A stretch of DNA of 64,000 bases from an uncultured Sulfitobacter sp. (GTDB taxonomy: Bacteria; Pseudomonadota; Alphaproteobacteria; Rhodobacterales; Rhodobacteraceae), in contig CANMXJ010000009.1 of assembly GCA_947501805.1 (NCBI GenBank), positions 8,330-72,329 on the forward strand, read 5' to 3'. Positions 8,951 to 16,557 of this stretch are shown in pieces (position 1 is the first letter of the stretch; every line of letters starts with the position of its first letter). Below the pieces are notes generated by a model. That model was not told the DNA's origin, did not search any database, and was given only the letters and a program-made list of their open reading frames with translations. A program made the translations under genes and the position numbers.

Positions 8951-10669
8951 TTACGTCGGCAGGCCCACAACAAAACGCGCGCCAAGCGGGTCAGATGTGA
9001 TGTCAGCTTCGGTCGGTCGGATATTCTCGGCCCAGATCACGCCACCATGCGCCTCCACGATCTGCTTTGATATCGCAAGACCAAGACCAGAGTTGTTACC
9101 GAAGTGTTCGTCAGGGCGCTGGGAATAGAAGCGTTTGAAAATCTTGCTCAGAGCCTGTTCGGGGATACCGGGCCCCGTATCTTCGACGACCACGAGCACA
9201 CGATTTTCGCGTTTGCGCGCCCAGACACGGATCGCATCACCATCCTCACAGAAGGATATCGCGTTTGTGATCAAGTTTACAAAAACCTGCGCCAACCGCG
9301 CCTCCAGCCCATGAACCATGATCGGCTCGTCTGGCAAGTCGGTGATAAAATCAATGCCCCGCCCTTTTGCATCTTCGCCAAGGTATTGACCCAGATTGCC
9401 AACCATATGCAGCAGATCGAATTCCTCTTCCTCTTCCTTGACGAGTTCAGAATCGAGGCGGGAGGCATTTGAAATATCGCTGACAAGGCGGTCCAGACGA
9501 CGCACGTCATGGTCAATCACGTCGAGCAATTTCTCGCGTTGGTCCTCGCGTTTGATCATGCGCAACGTGCCAACGGCAGAACGCAAAGAGGCTAAGGGGT
9601 TTTTGATCTCGTGTGCCACATCGGCGGCAAATTGTTCGTTACCGTCTATCCGGTTGTAAAGCGCGGAAACCATGCCGCGCAGGGCACCGGACAGGCGGCC
9701 AATTTCGTCAGGGCGCGCCGTCAGGTCAGGAATGCGAATGCGGCCTGGGTTCATCTGGCGCGCGTTCTTGTCACGACCCAGTCTGGCCGCGGCGGCAAGA
9801 TCAGCCAACGGGTGTGCAATGGTGGATGCCAGCACAAGGCTGAGGCCGATGGATACCAGTGTCGCGATCACAAACATTTGCAATACGCGCTCGCGCTCAC
9901 CGCGTACCAGGCTGTCAATTTCACCCGCGGCTGATGCAATTGCAACGACACCAACAGCCGTTCCATCCTGCATGATCGGAGTCATAACTGTAAAAAGCGT
10001 TCCACCTTCGCCATCAAGGGTATCCTCGATCCGGGTACCGCTTTCCAGACTGCCTGCGATCAGCGGTTTGAACTGCTCTTCGATTGGGACAACCTCGGGC
10101 GCAACGCCCCTGCTGAACGGGGAAGACATTTTGTCCCAGACCCAATTTAGGCCATCGGTGAGTAGCGTGGGACTGCCACGATCCGAGCTTGCATCGCCGA
10201 TACTCAGCTTGCCTTCTGTCTGGCCCACCAAGGTTTCGGATTTATCATAGACAAACACGTCAATGCCGCTGCGTAAATCAATCGCGCCAAGCGTAGCAGC
10301 GACATCAATTCCTTCACCGGTGGCCAGATCAACTTGCGTGCCCTCTGGTAGCTTTGCCTCGATCACATTCGCGATCAGCTCGGCCTCGGACACCAAAGCG
10401 GCGGCCCGTTGTACGGCCAGAGAATCCCGCGAGGAATTGAGATACAATATCCCCGCAACAAGGATGTTTAGGGCAATAAGGTTAAAAGTGATGATCTTGC
10501 GGGTAAGCGGCGAGCGACGCAGAGAAAAGAGCCCCCGCCGGTTACGGCGGGCACGCATTTCGTCAGGAGCAGCGCTTTCCGGTGAGACCCAATCATCTCC
10601 CAGAACAACATCGCCGTCCCTTACAGGTGTGCTTAGGTCGCGCACAAAATTCCTTTCGGCAATCGCCAC
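8951..10669 (-). CDS. chvG: Sensor histidine kinase ChvG/ExoS
   Basis: Two TM segments, HAMP, H-box DVAHEIKNPL, N/G boxes; adjacent to chvI and hprK; start approximate. Confidence 0.92.
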   Translation of the reverse strand: MAIAERNFVRDLSTPVRDGDVVLGDDWVSPESAAPDEMRARRNRRGLFSLRRSPLTRKIITFNLIALNILVAGILYLNSSRDSLAVQRAAALVSEAELIANVIEAKLPEGTQVDLATGEGIDVAATLGAIDLRSGIDVFVYDKSETLVGQTEGKLSIGDASSDRGSPTLLTDGLNWVWDKMSSPFSRGVAPEVVPIEEQFKPLIAGSLESGTRIEDTLDGEGGTLFTVMTPIMQDGTAVGVVAIASAAGEIDSLVRGERERVLQMFVIATLVSIGLSLVLASTIAHPLADLAAAARLGRDKNARQMNPGRIRIPDLTARPDEIGRLSGALRGMVSALYNRIDGNEQFAADVAHEIKNPLASLRSAVGTLRMIKREDQREKLLDVIDHDVRRLDRLVSDISNASRLDSELVKEEEEEFDLLHMVGNLGQYLGEDAKGRGIDFITDLPDEPIMVHGLEARLAQVFVNLITNAISFCEDGDAIRVWARKRENRVLVVVEDTGPGIPEQALSKIFKRFYSQRPDEHFGNNSGLGLAISKQIVEAHGGVIWAENIRPTEADITSDPLGARFVVGLPT

Positions 10670-10678
10670 AAGCTCAGA

Positions 10679-11380
10679 TTACTCTTCGTTATATCTGTAG
10701 CCGATACCGTAAAGCGTCTCAATCGCGGAGAATTCATCGTCCGCGGTGCGCATCTTCTTGCGCAAACGCTTGATGTGACTGTCGATGGTGCGATCATCCA
10801 CATAGACCTGATCGTCATATGCGACGTCCATCAACTGATCACGTGATTTGACGAAACCGGGACGCTGGGCCAAAGCCTGCAATAGCAGAAATTCGGTTAC
10901 TGTCAGCGACACGTCCTTGCCTTTCCAGGAAACAGCATGACGCAGCGGATCCATTTTCAGGTCGCCGCGGTCCATCACCTTGGTCTCTTCGGTGTCGCCA
11001 ACCTCGCCCGTATCGACCGCATCCTGACGGCGCAACAGCGCGCGGATACGCTCGACTAACAAGCGCTGGCTAAAGGGTTTTTTGACGTAATCGTCGGCAC
11101 CCATGCGCAGACCCAGCACCTCGTCGATCTCATCGTCCTTGGAGGTGAGAAAGATCACCGGCATTGCGGTTTTCTGACGCAAGCGTTGCAACAAATCCAT
11201 CCCGTCCATGCGGGGCATCTTGATGTCCAGCACAGCCATATCGGGTAGCTTTTTGTTAAATGCATCCAACGCGGCCTGACCGTCGTTGTATGTTTCCACC
11301 TCGAAACCTTCGGCTTCAAGAGTCATCGACACAGACGTCAGGATGTTCCTGTCGTCGTCCACCAATGCAATTTTTGACAT
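10679..11380 (-). CDS. chvI: OmpR-family response regulator ChvI
   Basis: [41 protein letters not shown]. Confidence 0.95.
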
Positions 11381-11740
11381 TGCCTGTTTCCTTGTACTGC
11401 TCAATTTTCGTTTTTTATGTTTTGAGACATTGATCACCATTTTCCTTGCGCGAATCAATCGCTAACTTCGAATCACCACAATCCTTGGCCACATTTCCGC
11501 CATAATTTGATTAGGAATGGCTAAATTGCCGCACTTTTCCGCAAACTTAGATGCTTAACTTTGTATCAATCATCGGTTTGACGCCAAACTTCGCCATGGT
11601 GGCGCTAACTGCGACACGGCCACCTGTTCATTTCCAAAAACATCGTGCTAAGAGGCGCATAGCGGCCACACAGGTCGCGGCCAGTTTGGTCACTAACGTC
11701 AGCGAAGCGCCACAAATTGCGCGCCTACAGGAGAGTAGTT

Positions 11741-13339
11741 ATGACATTTGGACGGGTAAACCCGCAGTTCCGCCTTGAAGATCAACAGATCAGTGGGCTG
11801 GGCAATGTCTACTATAACCTGATGGAGCCTGCGCTGATCGAAGCGGCGCTCAAACGTGATGAGGGCACCTTGGGCAATGGCGGTGCCTTTCTCGTTACCA
11901 CAGGAAAATTCACGGGTCGCTCCCCCAAAGACAAGCACGTGGTCAAAACAGCAAGCGTTGCAGATACGATCTGGTGGGAAAACAACGCAGAAATGTCACC
12001 GGAAGGCTTTGACGCCTTGTACGACGATATGATCGCCCACATGCAGGGCGGTGACTATTACGTACAGGATCTGGTCGGCGGTGCGGACCCGCGGCACGCA
12101 ATCAACGTGCGGATGGTCACTGAACTGGCATGGCATGGCCTATTCATCCGCACAATGCTGCGCCGCCCCGAACGCGCCGATCTGGATGATTTCATCGCAG
12201 ACTTTACGGTCATCAACTGCCCCAGCTTTCAGGCGGACCCTTCAAAACACAATTGCCGGTCAGAGACCGTGATTGCGATGAACTTTGACCGCAAGCTGAT
12301 CCTTATTGGTGGTACGGAATACGCAGGCGAAAACAAGAAATCCGTCTTTAGCTTGCTGAATTACCTGCTGCCGGAAAAAGGCATCATGCCGATGCATTGC
12401 TCTGCGAACCACGCGACAGGCAATCCGGTTGATACGGCTGTGTTCTTTGGTCTGTCCGGCACAGGTAAGACGACCTTATCTGCAGATCCCAACCGCACCC
12501 TGATCGGTGACGATGAACACGGCTGGTCAGATAACGGCACGTTCAACTTCGAGGGTGGCTGTTACGCCAAGACAATCAATCTGAGCCGTGAGGCGGAACC
12601 CGAAATTTACGACACCACGTCAAAATTCGGCACTGTGATCGAAAACATGGTTTTTGATCCCGAAACCAAAGAACTGGATTTCGACGACGACTCACTGACA
12701 GCCAACATGCGCTGCGCCTACCCGTTGCACTACATTTCCAACGCCTCCGAGAAGGCAACAGGCGGCCACCCCAAGAATATCATCATGCTGACATGCGATG
12801 CTTTTGGCGTGCTTCCCCCGATCGCGCGTTTGACGCCAGCACAAGCGATGTATCATTTCCTGTCCGGATTTACATCCAAAGTCGCAGGGACAGAGCGCGG
12901 CGTAACCGAGCCGGAACCGACATTCTCGACGTGTTTCGGCGCACCGTTCATGCCGCGTCGTCCCGAGGTTTACGGTAACTTGCTGCGTGAAAAAATTGCG
13001 CAACATGGCGCGACTTGCTGGCTGGTGAACACCGGCTGGACAGGTGGTGCCTATGGAACAGGCAGCCGCATGCCAATTCGTGCCACACGCGCATTGCTTA
13101 CCAGCGCCCTTGAGGGAGGCTTGGCAGAAGTTGAATACCGCAAGGATGCAAACTTTGGATTTGAAGTGCCTGTTGCTGTGGACGGGGTCGCAGATATCCT
13201 GCTGGACCCGCGCCGCACATGGGACAATCCGGAGGCCTATGATCGTCAGGCAGCCAAGCTGGTCTCTATGTTCTCGGAAAACTTCGAGCAGTATCTGCCG
13301 TTCATTGATGACGATGTGAAATCGATTGTCATCGGCTAA
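11741..13339 (+). CDS. pckA: Phosphoenolpyruvate carboxykinase (ATP)
   Basis: [27 protein letters not shown]; AGGAG RBS. Confidence 0.97.
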
Positions 13340-13361: not shown

Positions 13362-13393
13362 GAAAAGGCGGGCCCAACAGGACCCGCCTTTTC
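13362..13393. terminator. Bidirectional intrinsic terminator after pckA
   Basis: GAAAAGGCGGG-loop-CCCGCCTTTTC. Confidence 0.85.
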
Positions 13394-13398
13394 GCTGT

Positions 13399-14121
13399 CT
13401 ACGCCGCTTGCGCGCGCAATTTCTCTTCGGCCGCCGGCATTTCAAGGACAAACCGCATATCAGCACGATCCATATAGGTAAGGTAGCCCTCAATAGGCGT
13501 GTCGACGCCAGTCAGGAACCACCGCAGCGCACCGGGTTGCATATGCAGATAGGCGTGCCGCGCGGCAAAACCTTTGCACACGACCTCTTTTTGCATGAAC
13601 GCAAATACATTGTCGGGGTCCCAACGGTTCATGGCCTCCCAAAAGGCGTAACGGCCCAGCAAACTGGACAAACCCGTGCCCCTGAATTCGCCCGGTTCCC
13701 CGCCAATCCAGTATTCCCCGTGATAGCATGCCGTCCCGAAGACACGTGACACGCCTGGACCGGCCCGAAAGCGGGACCGCTCCAGATCAATGTCGACGCC
13801 GGAGGGCGGAAAATCACGGAAATTAAAACGCAAATACTCGCCCAAAGACACGCCGCCTGTCTCGATCATGCGCATCGCCTGTGTGTGAATAATGTGACCC
13901 GCGGAATTCCGCCCAATCATCCAAAATGCGTTTGTCGGGTTCAAATCATGTAGTCGCGGCTCAAAGGGATCGCCCAGAATATGGTCCGGCCGAGCTTCTT
14001 TAAGGAGCATGCGATAGTCCTCAAAATTGCTGCCTGCCGTCAGCGAAACGCCGATTTCCGCAAGTTTATCAAGGCTTAACGCCGCAAAGCGTTCCCCGTC
14101 GTCGAAGTTGTGAAGTGTCAT
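13399..14121 (-). CDS. Hypothetical protein, possible acyl-CoA N-acyltransferase (GNAT/LuxI-like) fold
   Basis: 240-aa ORF; YHGEYW followed by FRGTGLSSLL resembles the GNAT acyl-CoA-binding motif; fold call is inference. Confidence 0.6.
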   Translation of the reverse strand: MTLHNFDDGERFAALSLDKLAEIGVSLTAGSNFEDYRMLLKEARPDHILGDPFEPRLHDLNPTNAFWMIGRNSAGHIIHTQAMRMIETGGVSLGEYLRFNFRDFPPSGVDIDLERSRFRAGPGVSRVFGTACYHGEYWIGGEPGEFRGTGLSSLLGRYAFWEAMNRWDPDNVFAFMQKEVVCKGFAARHAYLHMQPGALRWFLTGVDTPIEGYLTYMDRADMRFVLEMPAAEEKLRAQAA

Positions 14122-14194
14122 GTTTGAGCCCCCAAAATGACTGATTCACTCTAGGTTAACGCAATTTACGCGCTTTGGCTTGTTTTTTGCCGAA

Positions 14195-15127
14195 TCAAGC
14201 CGGGTAGGTCACTCTGGCGTCGGCAGGCATCAATTCCAGCACCTCCTGATCGAGTCCCTTAATGCGAATGGTTTCGGAACGGTCCACAACAGTAATCAGC
14301 GCAAAGCTGCCATCCGGGAAACGCCCCCCCATGAGCAGTCGATGATACGCCAGCGGTTCGGGCGGCGTGTCCGCGCTGCGCGGAATTTGAGTTACAACCT
14401 CGTCCAGTCTTAGCCCGCCACTGGCTTGCACTTCTTCAAACGACTGGTTGATGAGGTTCTCAAATTCCGGCCCCCCCGGAAACTCGCCCAGACCGCGTCC
14501 GATGCTGCTGCGGGCATTAGCCCACCCCCACCATTGTGCGTAAAATGACTCTTCTCCGATCTCGACACAAATCCAACCATGTGGCGTATGACGATACACC
14601 AAGACAAACGGCCTCATTTTCTGGAACTCAGGGGCCTCAAGGTATCCTTCACTCCTGCTCCAGGCGGAGATGCAATCGCGGAACAAAGACGACGTCAAAT
14701 CCCAAGCGTGATTAAGTGGCTGATGTTGCTGAAAGAAAGCCCATCCATTAGGCGCTTCATGCGAAAACCGCATCAAATTGTTGACGTGGCCAGCCTGTCC
14801 TGTGATCCAGAGCTTGCCGCGTGCCAGCAGATCATCTGCTTCCGGCAGCATTTCAATGCCATGTGTTGTCAGCGTGTAGTGGTGCCCTTCCATCGAGAAC
14901 AGTTTGTTCCCCGACACTTCCTCCAACTGTGCGATATGGCGCCTCACCGTTTGGCGGGTACTGCCGAGCTCCGCAACAGCATGACTAAGATTCAGGGTGC
15001 GCGCCAATGTCGTAAACGAACGTATCATCTCATACAGCAAAGACGGCACCTGCACCGGCGCAGCTTTGGCCTGCACCGTTTGCACGGGATCTTCTTGTAT
15101 GGGTAACCTGACGTTCATTCGCGTCAT
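14195..15127 (-). CDS. LysR-type HTH fused to an atypical (PAS-like) C-terminal domain
   Basis: IRSFTTLARTLNLSHAVAELGSTRQTVRRHIAQLEE...LF...LTxxG is a LysR HTH; the C-terminus lacks LysR substrate-binding features; start uncertain. Confidence 0.7.
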   Translation of the reverse strand: MTRMNVRLPIQEDPVQTVQAKAAPVQVPSLLYEMIRSFTTLARTLNLSHAVAELGSTRQTVRRHIAQLEEVSGNKLFSMEGHHYTLTTHGIEMLPEADDLLARGKLWITGQAGHVNNLMRFSHEAPNGWAFFQQHQPLNHAWDLTSSLFRDCISAWSRSEGYLEAPEFQKMRPFVLVYRHTPHGWICVEIGEESFYAQWWGWANARSSIGRGLGEFPGGPEFENLINQSFEEVQASGGLRLDEVVTQIPRSADTPPEPLAYHRLLMGGRFPDGSFALITVVDRSETIRIKGLDQEVLELMPADARVTYPA

Positions 15128-15291
15128 GGTAAATCAATCATACATTTTGGCAATACAAATCACCCATCTTCCGTATAATTTTCCACCCAATTCGACATTT
15201 TTTATAACCGGATTAAAAAAATCTATGCAATTGAATGGAATCACCGCAGCCGCAATCAATGGAGGGCAAGTTCAACCAGAGGTAACAAGTT

Positions 15292-15651
15292 ATGTCCCAC
15301 CCCGTCGATGTTCATGTCGGTCGCAAACTCAAACAGATTCGCACCCTGCGACGCCTGTCCCAAACCGATGTCGCACGAAAGCTCGACCTGTCGTTCCAAC
15401 AGATTCAGAAATACGAAATCGGATCGAATCGCGTCGCTGCCAGCCGCCTATTTGAATTGTCGCAAATCCTTGACGTACCACCGTCGTTTTTCTTTGAGGG
15501 TCTGCACGACAATGAGAATGAGTCGCCGCAAAAAGACCCCGGCATGGAAATTGTCAGCGCATTGGCTGCAATCAAAGACGAAGATATCAAGTCACGTATT
15601 GTCACATTTATTCAAGATGTTTCCGGTGTGACAGTTGCGAGGCGCGGCTAA
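15292..15651 (+). CDS. XRE-family HTH transcriptional regulator, PraR/PhrR-like
   Basis: HPVDVHVG...LSFQQIQKYEIGSNRVAASRL...FFEGL; AGAGG RBS. Confidence 0.88.
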   Translation: MSHPVDVHVGRKLKQIRTLRRLSQTDVARKLDLSFQQIQKYEIGSNRVAASRLFELSQILDVPPSFFFEGLHDNENESPQKDPGMEIVSALAAIKDEDIKSRIVTFIQDVSGVTVARRG

Positions 15652-16412
15652 AATACCGCCCGCCGGATCAGGTTTGCCCCAGCGATCAATAAGACAATCA
15701 AGGTGGCACGTTTGAACATGACTTGATCAATTCTGTCCACAACTCTGCTGCCTGCCCACATCCCGATGAGGGCCGGTGCCACCAACAGAAGCGAAAATGG
15801 CACGGTTTCGGCACGCAAAACGCCTGACCCGAAATGTGCGCCAACCAATGCAACCGAACCAAGGCCATAGATCACACCCTGCACCCTTAACTGGTCCAGT
15901 TTGGGCGTATTTATTGCGGTAAGATACATCACAGTTGTTGGCCCCCAGGTGCCGGCGAATCCACCTAGAATGCCGGCAACTGCACCCGCTACTATCTCAA
16001 CCAGCTTGCTATTTCGGGTCAGGGAGAACTGGACACCGCTCAGTTGCAGGGCCGCATAGCCAAAAGCCGGCACACCAATGACAAACAGCAATAGTCGTTC
16101 GGGGACCACCCGAACCATTTGCGCGGCAATAACCAGAGTAATTCCTCCGGCGATCAGAAAGTACCTGAATGCCTTGACAGAGATCCAAGCAGCTCTTGGT
16201 CCTTGGCGCATGGATTGGACAATGTTTGTCACCAACGTCGGCGCAATCAGTCCTGCCAAGGCCAGTTCCGGCGCAAGAAACAAAGTCAGCCCTGAAATCA
16301 GGACCAGAGGCATGGCAAATCCAACCACACCTTTGACGAATCCCGCACAAAAAGCGATACACAATACAATGATAAAGGTAAGTGGGCCCAGAAACGGGAA
16401 AAACGCATCCAT
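15648..16412 (-). CDS. TauE/SafE sulfite exporter family membrane protein
   Basis: AGFVKGVVGFAMP and GGFAGTWGP repeated halves; multiple TM helices. Confidence 0.85.
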   Translation of the reverse strand: MDAFFPFLGPLTFIIVLCIAFCAGFVKGVVGFAMPLVLISGLTLFLAPELALAGLIAPTLVTNIVQSMRQGPRAAWISVKAFRYFLIAGGITLVIAAQMVRVVPERLLLFVIGVPAFGYAALQLSGVQFSLTRNSKLVEIVAGAVAGILGGFAGTWGPTTVMYLTAINTPKLDQLRVQGVIYGLGSVALVGAHFGSGVLRAETVPFSLLLVAPALIGMWAGSRVVDRIDQVMFKRATLIVLLIAGANLIRRAVF

Positions 16413-16557
16413 GGCCCTACATACCAGCTTGAAATAACACCGCACGGCAAATCGGCCGCGTAATTATCGAACAAATTGACGCAGTAAAACGTATCTTTGT
16501 TGTGCTGCGGCTGCGAAGTCGTTATCTGCGGTGCAGAAAAACAAGGGATAGATTTTA

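Follow-up and report, generated by a model that had tools for sequence, protein, structure and literature searches.

Do the three genes that lie between pckA and a TauE/SafE-family permease gene in an uncultured Sulfitobacter belong together and, if so, what might they do? They occupy positions 13399 to 15651 of a 64,000-nt stretch of DNA (the window), which corresponds to C9:8330-72329 of a 4.56-Mb genome in 47 contigs; the Sulfitobacter-like assembly GCA_003352065.1 is a genus-mate of this genome. Two of the genes share the minus strand and encode an orphan protein, referred to below as GNAT-like, and a LysR/PAS-type regulator. The third, a small XRE-type helix-turn-helix (HTH) gene, is transcribed divergently. 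An earlier note on this DNA had seen in them an undescribed signalling cassette, in which a putative synthase akin to LuxI or FeeM, a ligand-sensing transcription factor and a PraR-like master repressor would mirror a luxI/luxR pair. The layout that it described, i.e. the three open reading frames (ORFs), their strands, the pckA terminator and the AT-rich divergent spacer of 164 bp, is present. Judged by comparison with other genomes, all three ORFs are real genes; homologues of the GNAT-like protein (88 close ones), the regulator (765) and the XRE protein (many) were found, none interrupted by stops.

The comparative evidence supports the view that enzyme and regulator (with the XRE protein) form a conserved cassette and are not chance neighbours. 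The folds of its parts are known; their combination, to which two uncharacterised families are attached, is undescribed. We consider it moderately probable that the cassette combines an enzyme with a cognate, ligand-gated regulator, and that an old pair of alphaproteobacterial genes forms its core.

Conservation of the enzyme-regulator pair

In a census of Rhodobacteraceae, which covered 301 genomes at about one per genus, ~36 genomes gave full-length matches to the regulator and ~34 gave strong matches to the GNAT-like protein. Whenever both genes are complete, they are neighbours and point in the same direction. Among the 24 genomes of subfamily 1, a full-length XRE gene (a match over residues 1-112 or more) adjoins the regulator in every case, and the GNAT-like gene is at the locus in 22. 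Subfamily 2 has ~29-33% identity to the window enzyme and ~33-38% to the window regulator. Two genomes have it as a second copy, and it lies away from pckA, chvI and the gene for an acyl-CoA dehydrogenase (ACAD); chvI and chvG, upstream of pckA, are named here from homology to the window proteins. The gene order in subfamily 2 is regulator, then GNAT-like gene, and a transporter gene of the MFS family directly follows the latter in 7/9 loci: 6 of the 8 loci with a pair, and that of G231, where the GNAT-like and MFS genes have no regulator beside them. In two of these loci (L083 and L091) the MFS start overlaps the GNAT-like stop in the called ORFs. The divergent XRE gene is recognisable at 4 of 8 subfamily-2 loci. 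Thus the three families co-occur, as the earlier note had expected, and the pair is also found in unrelated contexts. That note had made its proposal depend on such co-occurrence and on an acyltransferase fold in the orphan; both were checked, and both were found.

The pairing extends to other Alphaproteobacteria, where the enzyme family stands beside PAS_5-type proteins, a fact that the earlier note missed. In a class-level sample of 401 alphaproteobacterial genomes from 308 genera, the GNAT-like family was detected in 34 genomes (26 genera), each with one to four copies. Among 90 ORFs neighbouring these genes, PAS_5 (PF07310) is the commonest Pfam family, with 5 proteins and a best E of 4.7e-12; HTH_3 comes second. 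Ten convergent neighbours of ~300 aa had no Pfam match. An iterative search from one Pfam-validated PAS_5 neighbour placed a PAS_5-like protein beside the GNAT-like gene in ~25 of 29 loci, and these include the Pfam-less ~300-aa neighbours.

The same type of domain appears to form the C-terminal part of the window regulator, to which PAS_5 proteins (formerly DUF1457) are linked by profile-profile comparison through intermediate sequences. With hhalign, the C-terminal domain of the regulator aligned to the ~300-aa neighbours of distant GNAT-like genes (Prob 93.4%, E 2.5e-7, 152 columns), and these aligned to the Pfam-validated PAS_5 neighbours (Prob 96.5%, E 8.8e-10). An earlier run of the regulator domain against the pooled neighbour set gave 83% (E 9e-6), and the negative control, GNAT-like against the PAS_5 group, 0.2%. 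In the structural model of the regulator, residues 175-283 form two strands, several helices and three strands; this succession, as read off the DSSP string, is canonical for PAS. Remote homology and topology together support a PAS-type domain outside Pfam membership; PF07310 itself had no match in the window regulator at E<=1. Outside the Roseobacter group, GNAT-like genes usually stand beside stand-alone PAS_5 proteins, whereas the window regulator has the domain in one polypeptide with a DNA-binding one. A literature search on PF07310, DUF1457 and PAS_5 found no paper giving a function, and one on Sulfitobacter, GNAT, LysR and quorum sensing yielded no account of the cassette.

Some loci depart from the usual arrangement. 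The pair is decayed in G013, and the regulator of G202 is broken into two ORFs. An in-frame TAA is seen in the regulator of G111, and an in-frame TGA in the GNAT-like frame of both G096 and G206. In G136 and G158 cassette genes are cut at contig ends. Tandem or multiple GNAT-like copies were observed at G363:C76:1378-3081, at G609:C1:1124960-1126518 and in G695 (four copies, two of them on C10).

The window genome itself has a third GNAT-like paralogue at C18:76150-76824 (L002:1411-2130, minus strand), with 23% identity (pairwise E 9e-8). The gene for an XRE-HTH protein (L002:653-1459, plus strand) converges on it, the 3' ends overlapping by 49 nt, and this pair is kept in three genomes, including G098 and G208. 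The unassigned C-terminal domain of the XRE-HTH partner ends '...FVRLMLPVKD...'. Its hhalign probability against PAS_5-type profiles was only 31-34%, which is suggestive of a possible relationship to PAS_5. BLASTP between this partner and the LysR-PAS regulator was not significant, and a jackhmmer search seeded with it found nothing among the class-level neighbours.

The GNAT-like enzyme, the regulator and the XRE protein

All 88 close homologues of the GNAT-like protein come from Sulfitobacter, Roseobacter, Tateyamaria and Aliishimia. A profile of the family recovered 1007 clusters at E<=1e-3 and 496 at E<=1e-10 from 1.84 billion representatives, the ~1000 clusters being defined at 50% identity. 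Searches of PDB sequences with the protein (phmmer) and with the family profile gave nothing relevant; a ceruloplasmin match was a short spurious stretch and was discarded. A broader alignment of 53 GNAT-like members still matched no Pfam family and no PDB sequence, the single Pfam trace being one member with Acetyltransf_7 at E 0.17. Pfam searches with extended or fused representatives (P0264, P0270, P0245 and others) yielded no domains.

The fold was assigned from structure prediction. An AlphaFold2 model based on a 42-sequence alignment (pLDDT 88.4, pTM 0.86) gave 119 Foldseek matches in the PDB at E<=1e-3 (best E 9.6e-6, TM scores 0.4-0.63), and every one of the best 50 is a GNAT N-acetyltransferase. 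The structural neighbours include the PA3270 type, SpeG, Naa60, Ard1, RimJ, NatD, HP0935, AAC(6') and phosphinothricin-type enzymes. On this model the orphan can be assigned confidently to the GNAT fold, and the earlier description of it as acyltransferase-like holds at the level of the fold. GNAT proteins have a mixed alpha/beta fold in the order beta1-alpha1-alpha2-beta2-4-alpha3-beta5-alpha4-beta6-7, with a pyrophosphate loop, R/Q-x-x-G-x-G/A, between beta4 and alpha3. In the GNAT-like protein a conserved strand, Y133-x-G135-E136-x-W138, precedes the loop R147-G-T-G150-L-S152, which lies directly before the helix 151-166; R147, G148 and G150 are near invariant in orthologues. The position of the R147 loop matches that of the GNAT loop for the pyrophosphate of coenzyme A (CoA), the last position of the motif being Ser.

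The kinship with LuxI and FeeM that had been proposed for the orphan was not borne out. PF00765 (Autoind_synth) matched neither the window protein nor the 53 family members, the N-acyl-amino-acid-synthase and FeeM models of NCBIfam and Pfam did not match the GNAT-like protein, and the best 50 Foldseek matches are generic N-acetyltransferases with no LuxI-type structure among them.

The C-terminal tail of the GNAT-like protein (window 13399-13425) is predicted to be disordered, with pLDDT <50 for residues 232-240. It ends in Ala-Ala in 83 of the 88 close orthologues, the preceding residues being variable, and in 16 of 126 representatives of the wider family. The Ala-Ala tail looks like a C-terminal degron of the ssrA type (ClpXP), which would keep the enzyme short-lived.

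The regulator is a hybrid one-component factor, in which a LysR winged helix is joined to a sensor domain that is not of the LysR type and is probably PAS-like. HTH_1 (PF00126) matches residues 34-90 (14858-15028) with E 1.3e-9, and the PDB sequence matches are DNA-binding domains of LysR-type transcriptional regulators (LTTRs). Beyond residue ~103 no Pfam, NCBIfam or PDB match was obtained, and the LysR_substrate domain PF03466 was not found. The fusion of a LysR-type HTH to PAS put forward in the earlier note is supported, the HTH by direct match and the PAS part by the remote profile link. In the model (pLDDT 90.2), the DNA-binding domain superposes on those of OxyR, CcmR, BenM and CbnR within 0.8-2 A over 78-88 residues (Foldseek). 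Like LTTRs, the regulator has an N-terminal winged HTH with a long linker helix, and its gene lies beside a likely target; unlike them, it has a PAS-type alpha/beta domain in place of the periplasmic-binding-protein-type substrate domain, and its gene is co-directional with its neighbour and not divergent. Its full-length Foldseek matches are IclR regulators of the winged HTH plus GAF/PAS type (2g7u, 5h1a, 8eju, 5y6i, 2xrn; probability 0.87-0.98, TM only 0.19-0.28) and NPAS4-ARNT2. In architecture, i.e. a winged HTH followed by a PAS/GAF-like small-molecule-binding domain, it is closest to these IclR-type regulators, from which it differs by its LysR-type DNA-binding domain, the lack of a match to IclR sequence models and the low TM.

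The sensor domain (window 14205-14800) has unusually many invariant Trp and Arg residues (W107, W156, W185, W199, R172, R179 and R263). In the stretch A-R-S-S-x-G-R at residues 205-211, all named positions are invariant or at least 90% conserved. Together these residues might mark a ligand pocket suited to an anion or an aromatic compound.

The XRE protein has an HTH_3 domain (PF01381, E 5.2e-12) at residues 13-67 and a cassette-specific C-terminal tail at about residues 80-119. A different XRE type is found in 280/301 Rhodobacteraceae genomes, at a separate locus with conserved neighbours of its own (L136-L143). The similarity of this ubiquitous XRE to the window XRE is confined to residues 1-80 (~50% identity); the copy in the window genome (C2:442060-442281) has 49% identity over residues 1-74. 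Because the full-length type is found at the cassette and the ubiquitous copy at another conserved locus, comparison of the two types identifies the cassette XRE as a dedicated paralogue of the ubiquitous protein. Three additional full-length copies are located elsewhere (G067, G045 and G177). The ancestral XRE of the CdxA/PraR/PhrR type has a class-wide conserved neighbourhood and is known to spawn cross-regulated paralogues (PMC10688885), which have been described in Caulobacter and Rhizobium (PMC10688885, PMC4149787). The ubiquitous Rhodobacteraceae XRE is likely the counterpart of this ancestral protein. Like CdxA, PraR and PhrR, the window XRE is a small HTH_3 protein; its C-terminal 40 residues are not shared with the ubiquitous copy. 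Since that copy sits elsewhere, the window XRE would not be the PraR/PhrR orthologue (as judged without direct PraR comparison), and the master repressor of the earlier note is replaced by a paralogue that is specific to the cassette.

Proposed function and competing explanations

In the reading that we prefer, the GNAT-fold enzyme would be an acyltransferase, presumably dependent on acyl-CoA. In the Roseobacter group, a PAS_5-type sensor would have been fused to a LysR winged helix to give a one-component transcription factor, which is probably transcribed together with the enzyme from the AT-rich divergent promoter. The PAS-type domain would bind the substrate or the product of the acyltransferase, and the factor would set the transcription of its own bicistronic operon, creating a ligand-gated feedback loop. 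The oppositely transcribed XRE most likely acts on the same spacer, perhaps as a repressor. The MFS protein of subfamily 2, and possibly TauE here, may move the molecule across the membrane. This reading encompasses both a signalling system (product as ligand) and an inducible modification (substrate as ligand), which we leave side by side as tentative possibilities of equal standing; the weights given to the several explanations overlap and are not shares of one whole.

A number of observations weigh against the proposed function. The GNAT-like protein has no Pfam or NCBIfam match at E<=1, and the strict motif R/Q-G-x-G is present in only 46 of 126 representatives of the wider family; use of acyl-CoA is therefore presumed from the fold alone. 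The link between the regulator and PAS_5 is transitive, and hhalign of the regulator C-terminal domain directly against the Pfam-validated PAS_5 neighbours was not significant. In a set of 80 loci from close relatives, the GNAT-like gene, the same-strand regulator and the divergent XRE gene are syntenic in 80/80, but so are pckA, chvI, chvG and the gene for the 562-aa ACAD. Most of this synteny reflects shared ancestry and by itself shows little, and the weight of the evidence therefore falls on the subfamily-2 and class-level loci. Two genomes (G235, locus L092; G186, locus L093) have kept the regulator and XRE genes and lost the GNAT-like gene, pckA being directly adjacent. Together with the split genes and in-frame stops described above, such losses suggest that the cassette may be dispensable. 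Finally, many partners outside the Roseobacter group have no recognisable DNA-binding domain and are convergent, not co-transcribed, with the enzyme gene. They fit a protein-protein or shared-ligand relation as well as transcriptional control.

If the ligand is the product, the cassette would be an autoinducer-type system: the enzyme would make a diffusible acylated signal, the LysR-PAS factor would be its receptor, the XRE protein a brake like RsaL or PraR, and the subfamily-2 MFS protein the exporter. LasR-RsaL-LasI and CinR/CinI with PraR are LuxI/LuxR pairs with a small HTH repressor. The cassette shares with them an enzyme of the GNAT superfamily beside a ligand-sensing factor and a small HTH protein, in a layout that could allow feedback. 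The adjacency of enzyme and receptor-like protein has been kept over a long evolutionary distance and in different contexts, the single apparent operon would permit positive feedback, and the dedicated XRE paralogue is divergent from it. The MFS gene behind the enzyme in most subfamily-2 loci, with a stop overlap in two, and the conserved Ala-Ala tail, which suggests tight control of the enzyme level, point the same way. However, the resemblance to a LuxR-LuxI locus with an RsaL/PraR-type brake is one of layout only, and every feature of LuxI/LuxR membership that was tested is missing. The enzyme has no PF00765, FeeM or N-acyl-amino-acid-synthase signature, and its nearest structures are generic N-acetyltransferases at TM 0.4-0.6. 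Where a LuxR-type receptor has an autoinducer-binding domain and a GerE HTH, the receptor here has a PAS_5-like domain and a LysR winged helix, and its gene precedes that of the enzyme in one apparent operon. The dominance of stand-alone PAS_5 partners without a DNA-binding domain outside the Roseobacter group also counts against an autoinducer, as does the retention of receptor and XRE without 'synthase' in two genomes, which could also be a case of 'solo receptor'.

With the substrate as ligand, the PAS-type regulator might sense an amine or amino-acid analogue, e.g. of algal origin, and induce its N-acylation as a modification or detoxification, MFS or TauE importing or expelling the compound. 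The order regulator-GNAT-MFS is typical of resistance, detoxification or catabolic loci, small-molecule N-acetyltransferases such as SpeG, AAC(6') and the phosphinothricin type are among the nearest structures, and the enzyme losses and broken genes would suit an accessory role. Yet the core pair is vertically inherited beside housekeeping genes in many genera and not carried on islands, it has no co-conserved catabolic enzymes, and the dedicated XRE and frequent multi-copy or tandem paralogues look more regulatory than catabolic. An improbable third explanation is a switch at the protein level, in which the enzyme acylates or complexes its PAS_5-type partner (here a transcription factor) and no free small molecule is made. 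The strict one-to-one adjacency with PAS_5-type proteins would fit this, in that it includes partners without DNA-binding domains and convergent ones with overlapping 3' ends, as is often seen for interacting proteins; stand-alone, often convergent PAS_5 partners are the rule outside the Roseobacter group, and many of the top structures (RimJ, Naa60, Ard1, NatD, HP0935) acetylate protein N-termini or lysines. Against it, the Foldseek rank among GNATs at TM 0.4-0.6 cannot tell substrates apart, and no fusion of the two families occurs among the extended representatives scanned. Very improbable, and essentially excluded by the co-occurrence census, are unrelated syntenic neighbours or a module of GNAT toxin and HTH antitoxin. 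Synteny of the whole neighbourhood from chvG-chvI-pckA to ACAD means that adjacency in that clade proves little, but the pairing returns in a diverged subfamily, in surroundings unrelated to these, and elsewhere in the class. A GNAT toxin with an upstream DNA-binding antitoxin is a known layout, in which an antitoxin of ~90 aa overlaps a toxin of ~170 aa in a mobile context. Here the 310-aa partner has a sensor domain, the enzyme has 240 aa, the genes are 73 nt apart, the locus is chromosomal and vertically inherited, and no tRNA-acetylating toxin is among the best 50 Foldseek matches.

As for the preferred reading of an enzyme with a cognate ligand-gated regulator, what it adds is a sizeable GNAT-fold family that had no curated model, and whose near-obligate pairing with PAS_5 provides a testable handle on both families. 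The Roseobacter-group form is the most tractable, because its sensor is joined to a DNA-binding domain, so that a promoter reporter could show the output. Bacteria that dominate algal blooms would turn out to use a new signalling chemistry if the ligand is the product, and a new inducible route of N-acylation would be defined if it is the substrate. Either outcome would allow several hundred annotations as 'hypothetical protein' or 'LysR family' to be corrected. More far-reaching, and in our view doubtful, is the idea that GNAT-like and PAS_5-type proteins constitute a widespread, unrecognised alphaproteobacterial signalling pair of synthase and receptor, of which the LysR-PAS protein would be the transcription-coupled form, with the XRE protein as brake and the MFS protein as exporter. 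Signalling between cells, or between host and microbe, would then have a new class of system, and the PAS_5/DUF1457 domain a first function.

Control region, transcript limits and flanking genes

Coordinates of the cassette, its control region and flanking features (window positions unless a locus is named)
Feature	Position	Strand	Remarks
pckA	11717-13339		PF01293, E 3e-214; convergent with GNAT-like gene
Hairpin	13362-13393		14-bp stem with 9 GC pairs; pckA and the GNAT-like gene converge on it
GNAT-like gene ("orphan")	13399-14121	-	240 aa; from ORF listing
Regulator/GNAT-like intercistronic gap	14122-14194	-	73 nt
LysR/PAS-type regulator	14195-15127	-	310 aa; from ORF listing
C-terminal alpha/beta sensor domain	14258-14800		regulator residues ~110-290
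LysR-type winged HTH and linker helix			regulator residues 31-108
ATTTACCAT block	15126-15134		conserved; extends two bases beyond the spacer into the regulator ORF as annotated
AT-rich divergent control region	15128-15291		164 bp
TTGCA-type block	15143-15155		conserved spacer block
GATGGGTGAT block	15159-15168	-	conserved spacer block
CAATTG palindrome	15228-15233		in 56/80 loci
XRE gene	15292-15651	+	119 aa; from ORF listing
TauE/SafE-family membrane permease	15648-16445	-	PF01925; convergent with XRE gene
Subfamily-2 MFS genes	L083:8388-9614, L086:8354-9517, L089:5398-6585, L091:7456-8676		PF07690, E 1e-32 to 1e-40

The spacer between the XRE and regulator genes has a GC content of ~0.45, compared with ~0.55 in its surroundings. 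It was aligned over the 80 loci, and expected motif counts were obtained by shuffling. The alignment displays the Shine-Dalgarno sequence of the XRE gene and four conserved blocks. GATGGGTGA is found exactly in 27/80 loci (0.04 expected), TTTACCAT in 35 (0.5 expected) and TTGCA[AT] in 46 (11 expected). One sigma-70-like match was found on the minus strand (15153-15126). The enriched TTGCA-type block is near to the PraR box of Rhizobium, TTGCAA (PMC4149787), and thus gives a weak hint that an XRE protein may bind there. A direct repeat ATGGrTGAT with 21-bp spacing, taken from the consensus of the control region, was dropped, as it occurs in only 3/80 loci. The conserved start of the regulator is more likely the ATG at 15118 ('MN...'), three codons downstream of the annotated start, and the protein probably begins there.

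Regulator and GNAT-like gene are probably co-transcribed. No terminator-like site was seen in the gap between them, GGGGG serves as a Shine-Dalgarno sequence 8 nt ahead of the GNAT-like ATG, and in relatives the gap measures 37-149 nt (median 68). A TTGCGyTAA block in the gap is weakly conserved, and only in part (columns reach at most 90% over the 80 loci); it could be an internal promoter or an operator. At the other end, the hairpin listed in the table is bordered by an A-run and a T-run; it is therefore probably a bidirectional terminator that closes the cassette transcript.

Beyond the XRE gene, whose stop is overlapped by 4 nt by the start of the TauE range, the TauE/SafE permease gene is to be placed outside the core of the cassette because it is variable among related loci, being found in ~49/80 and missing from Roseobacter species. 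On the other side, the genes for a chvG-like histidine kinase and a chvI-like response regulator and the divergent pckA (window 8951-13339), a classical alphaproteobacterial arrangement, are kept beside the cassette in nearly all 80 loci.

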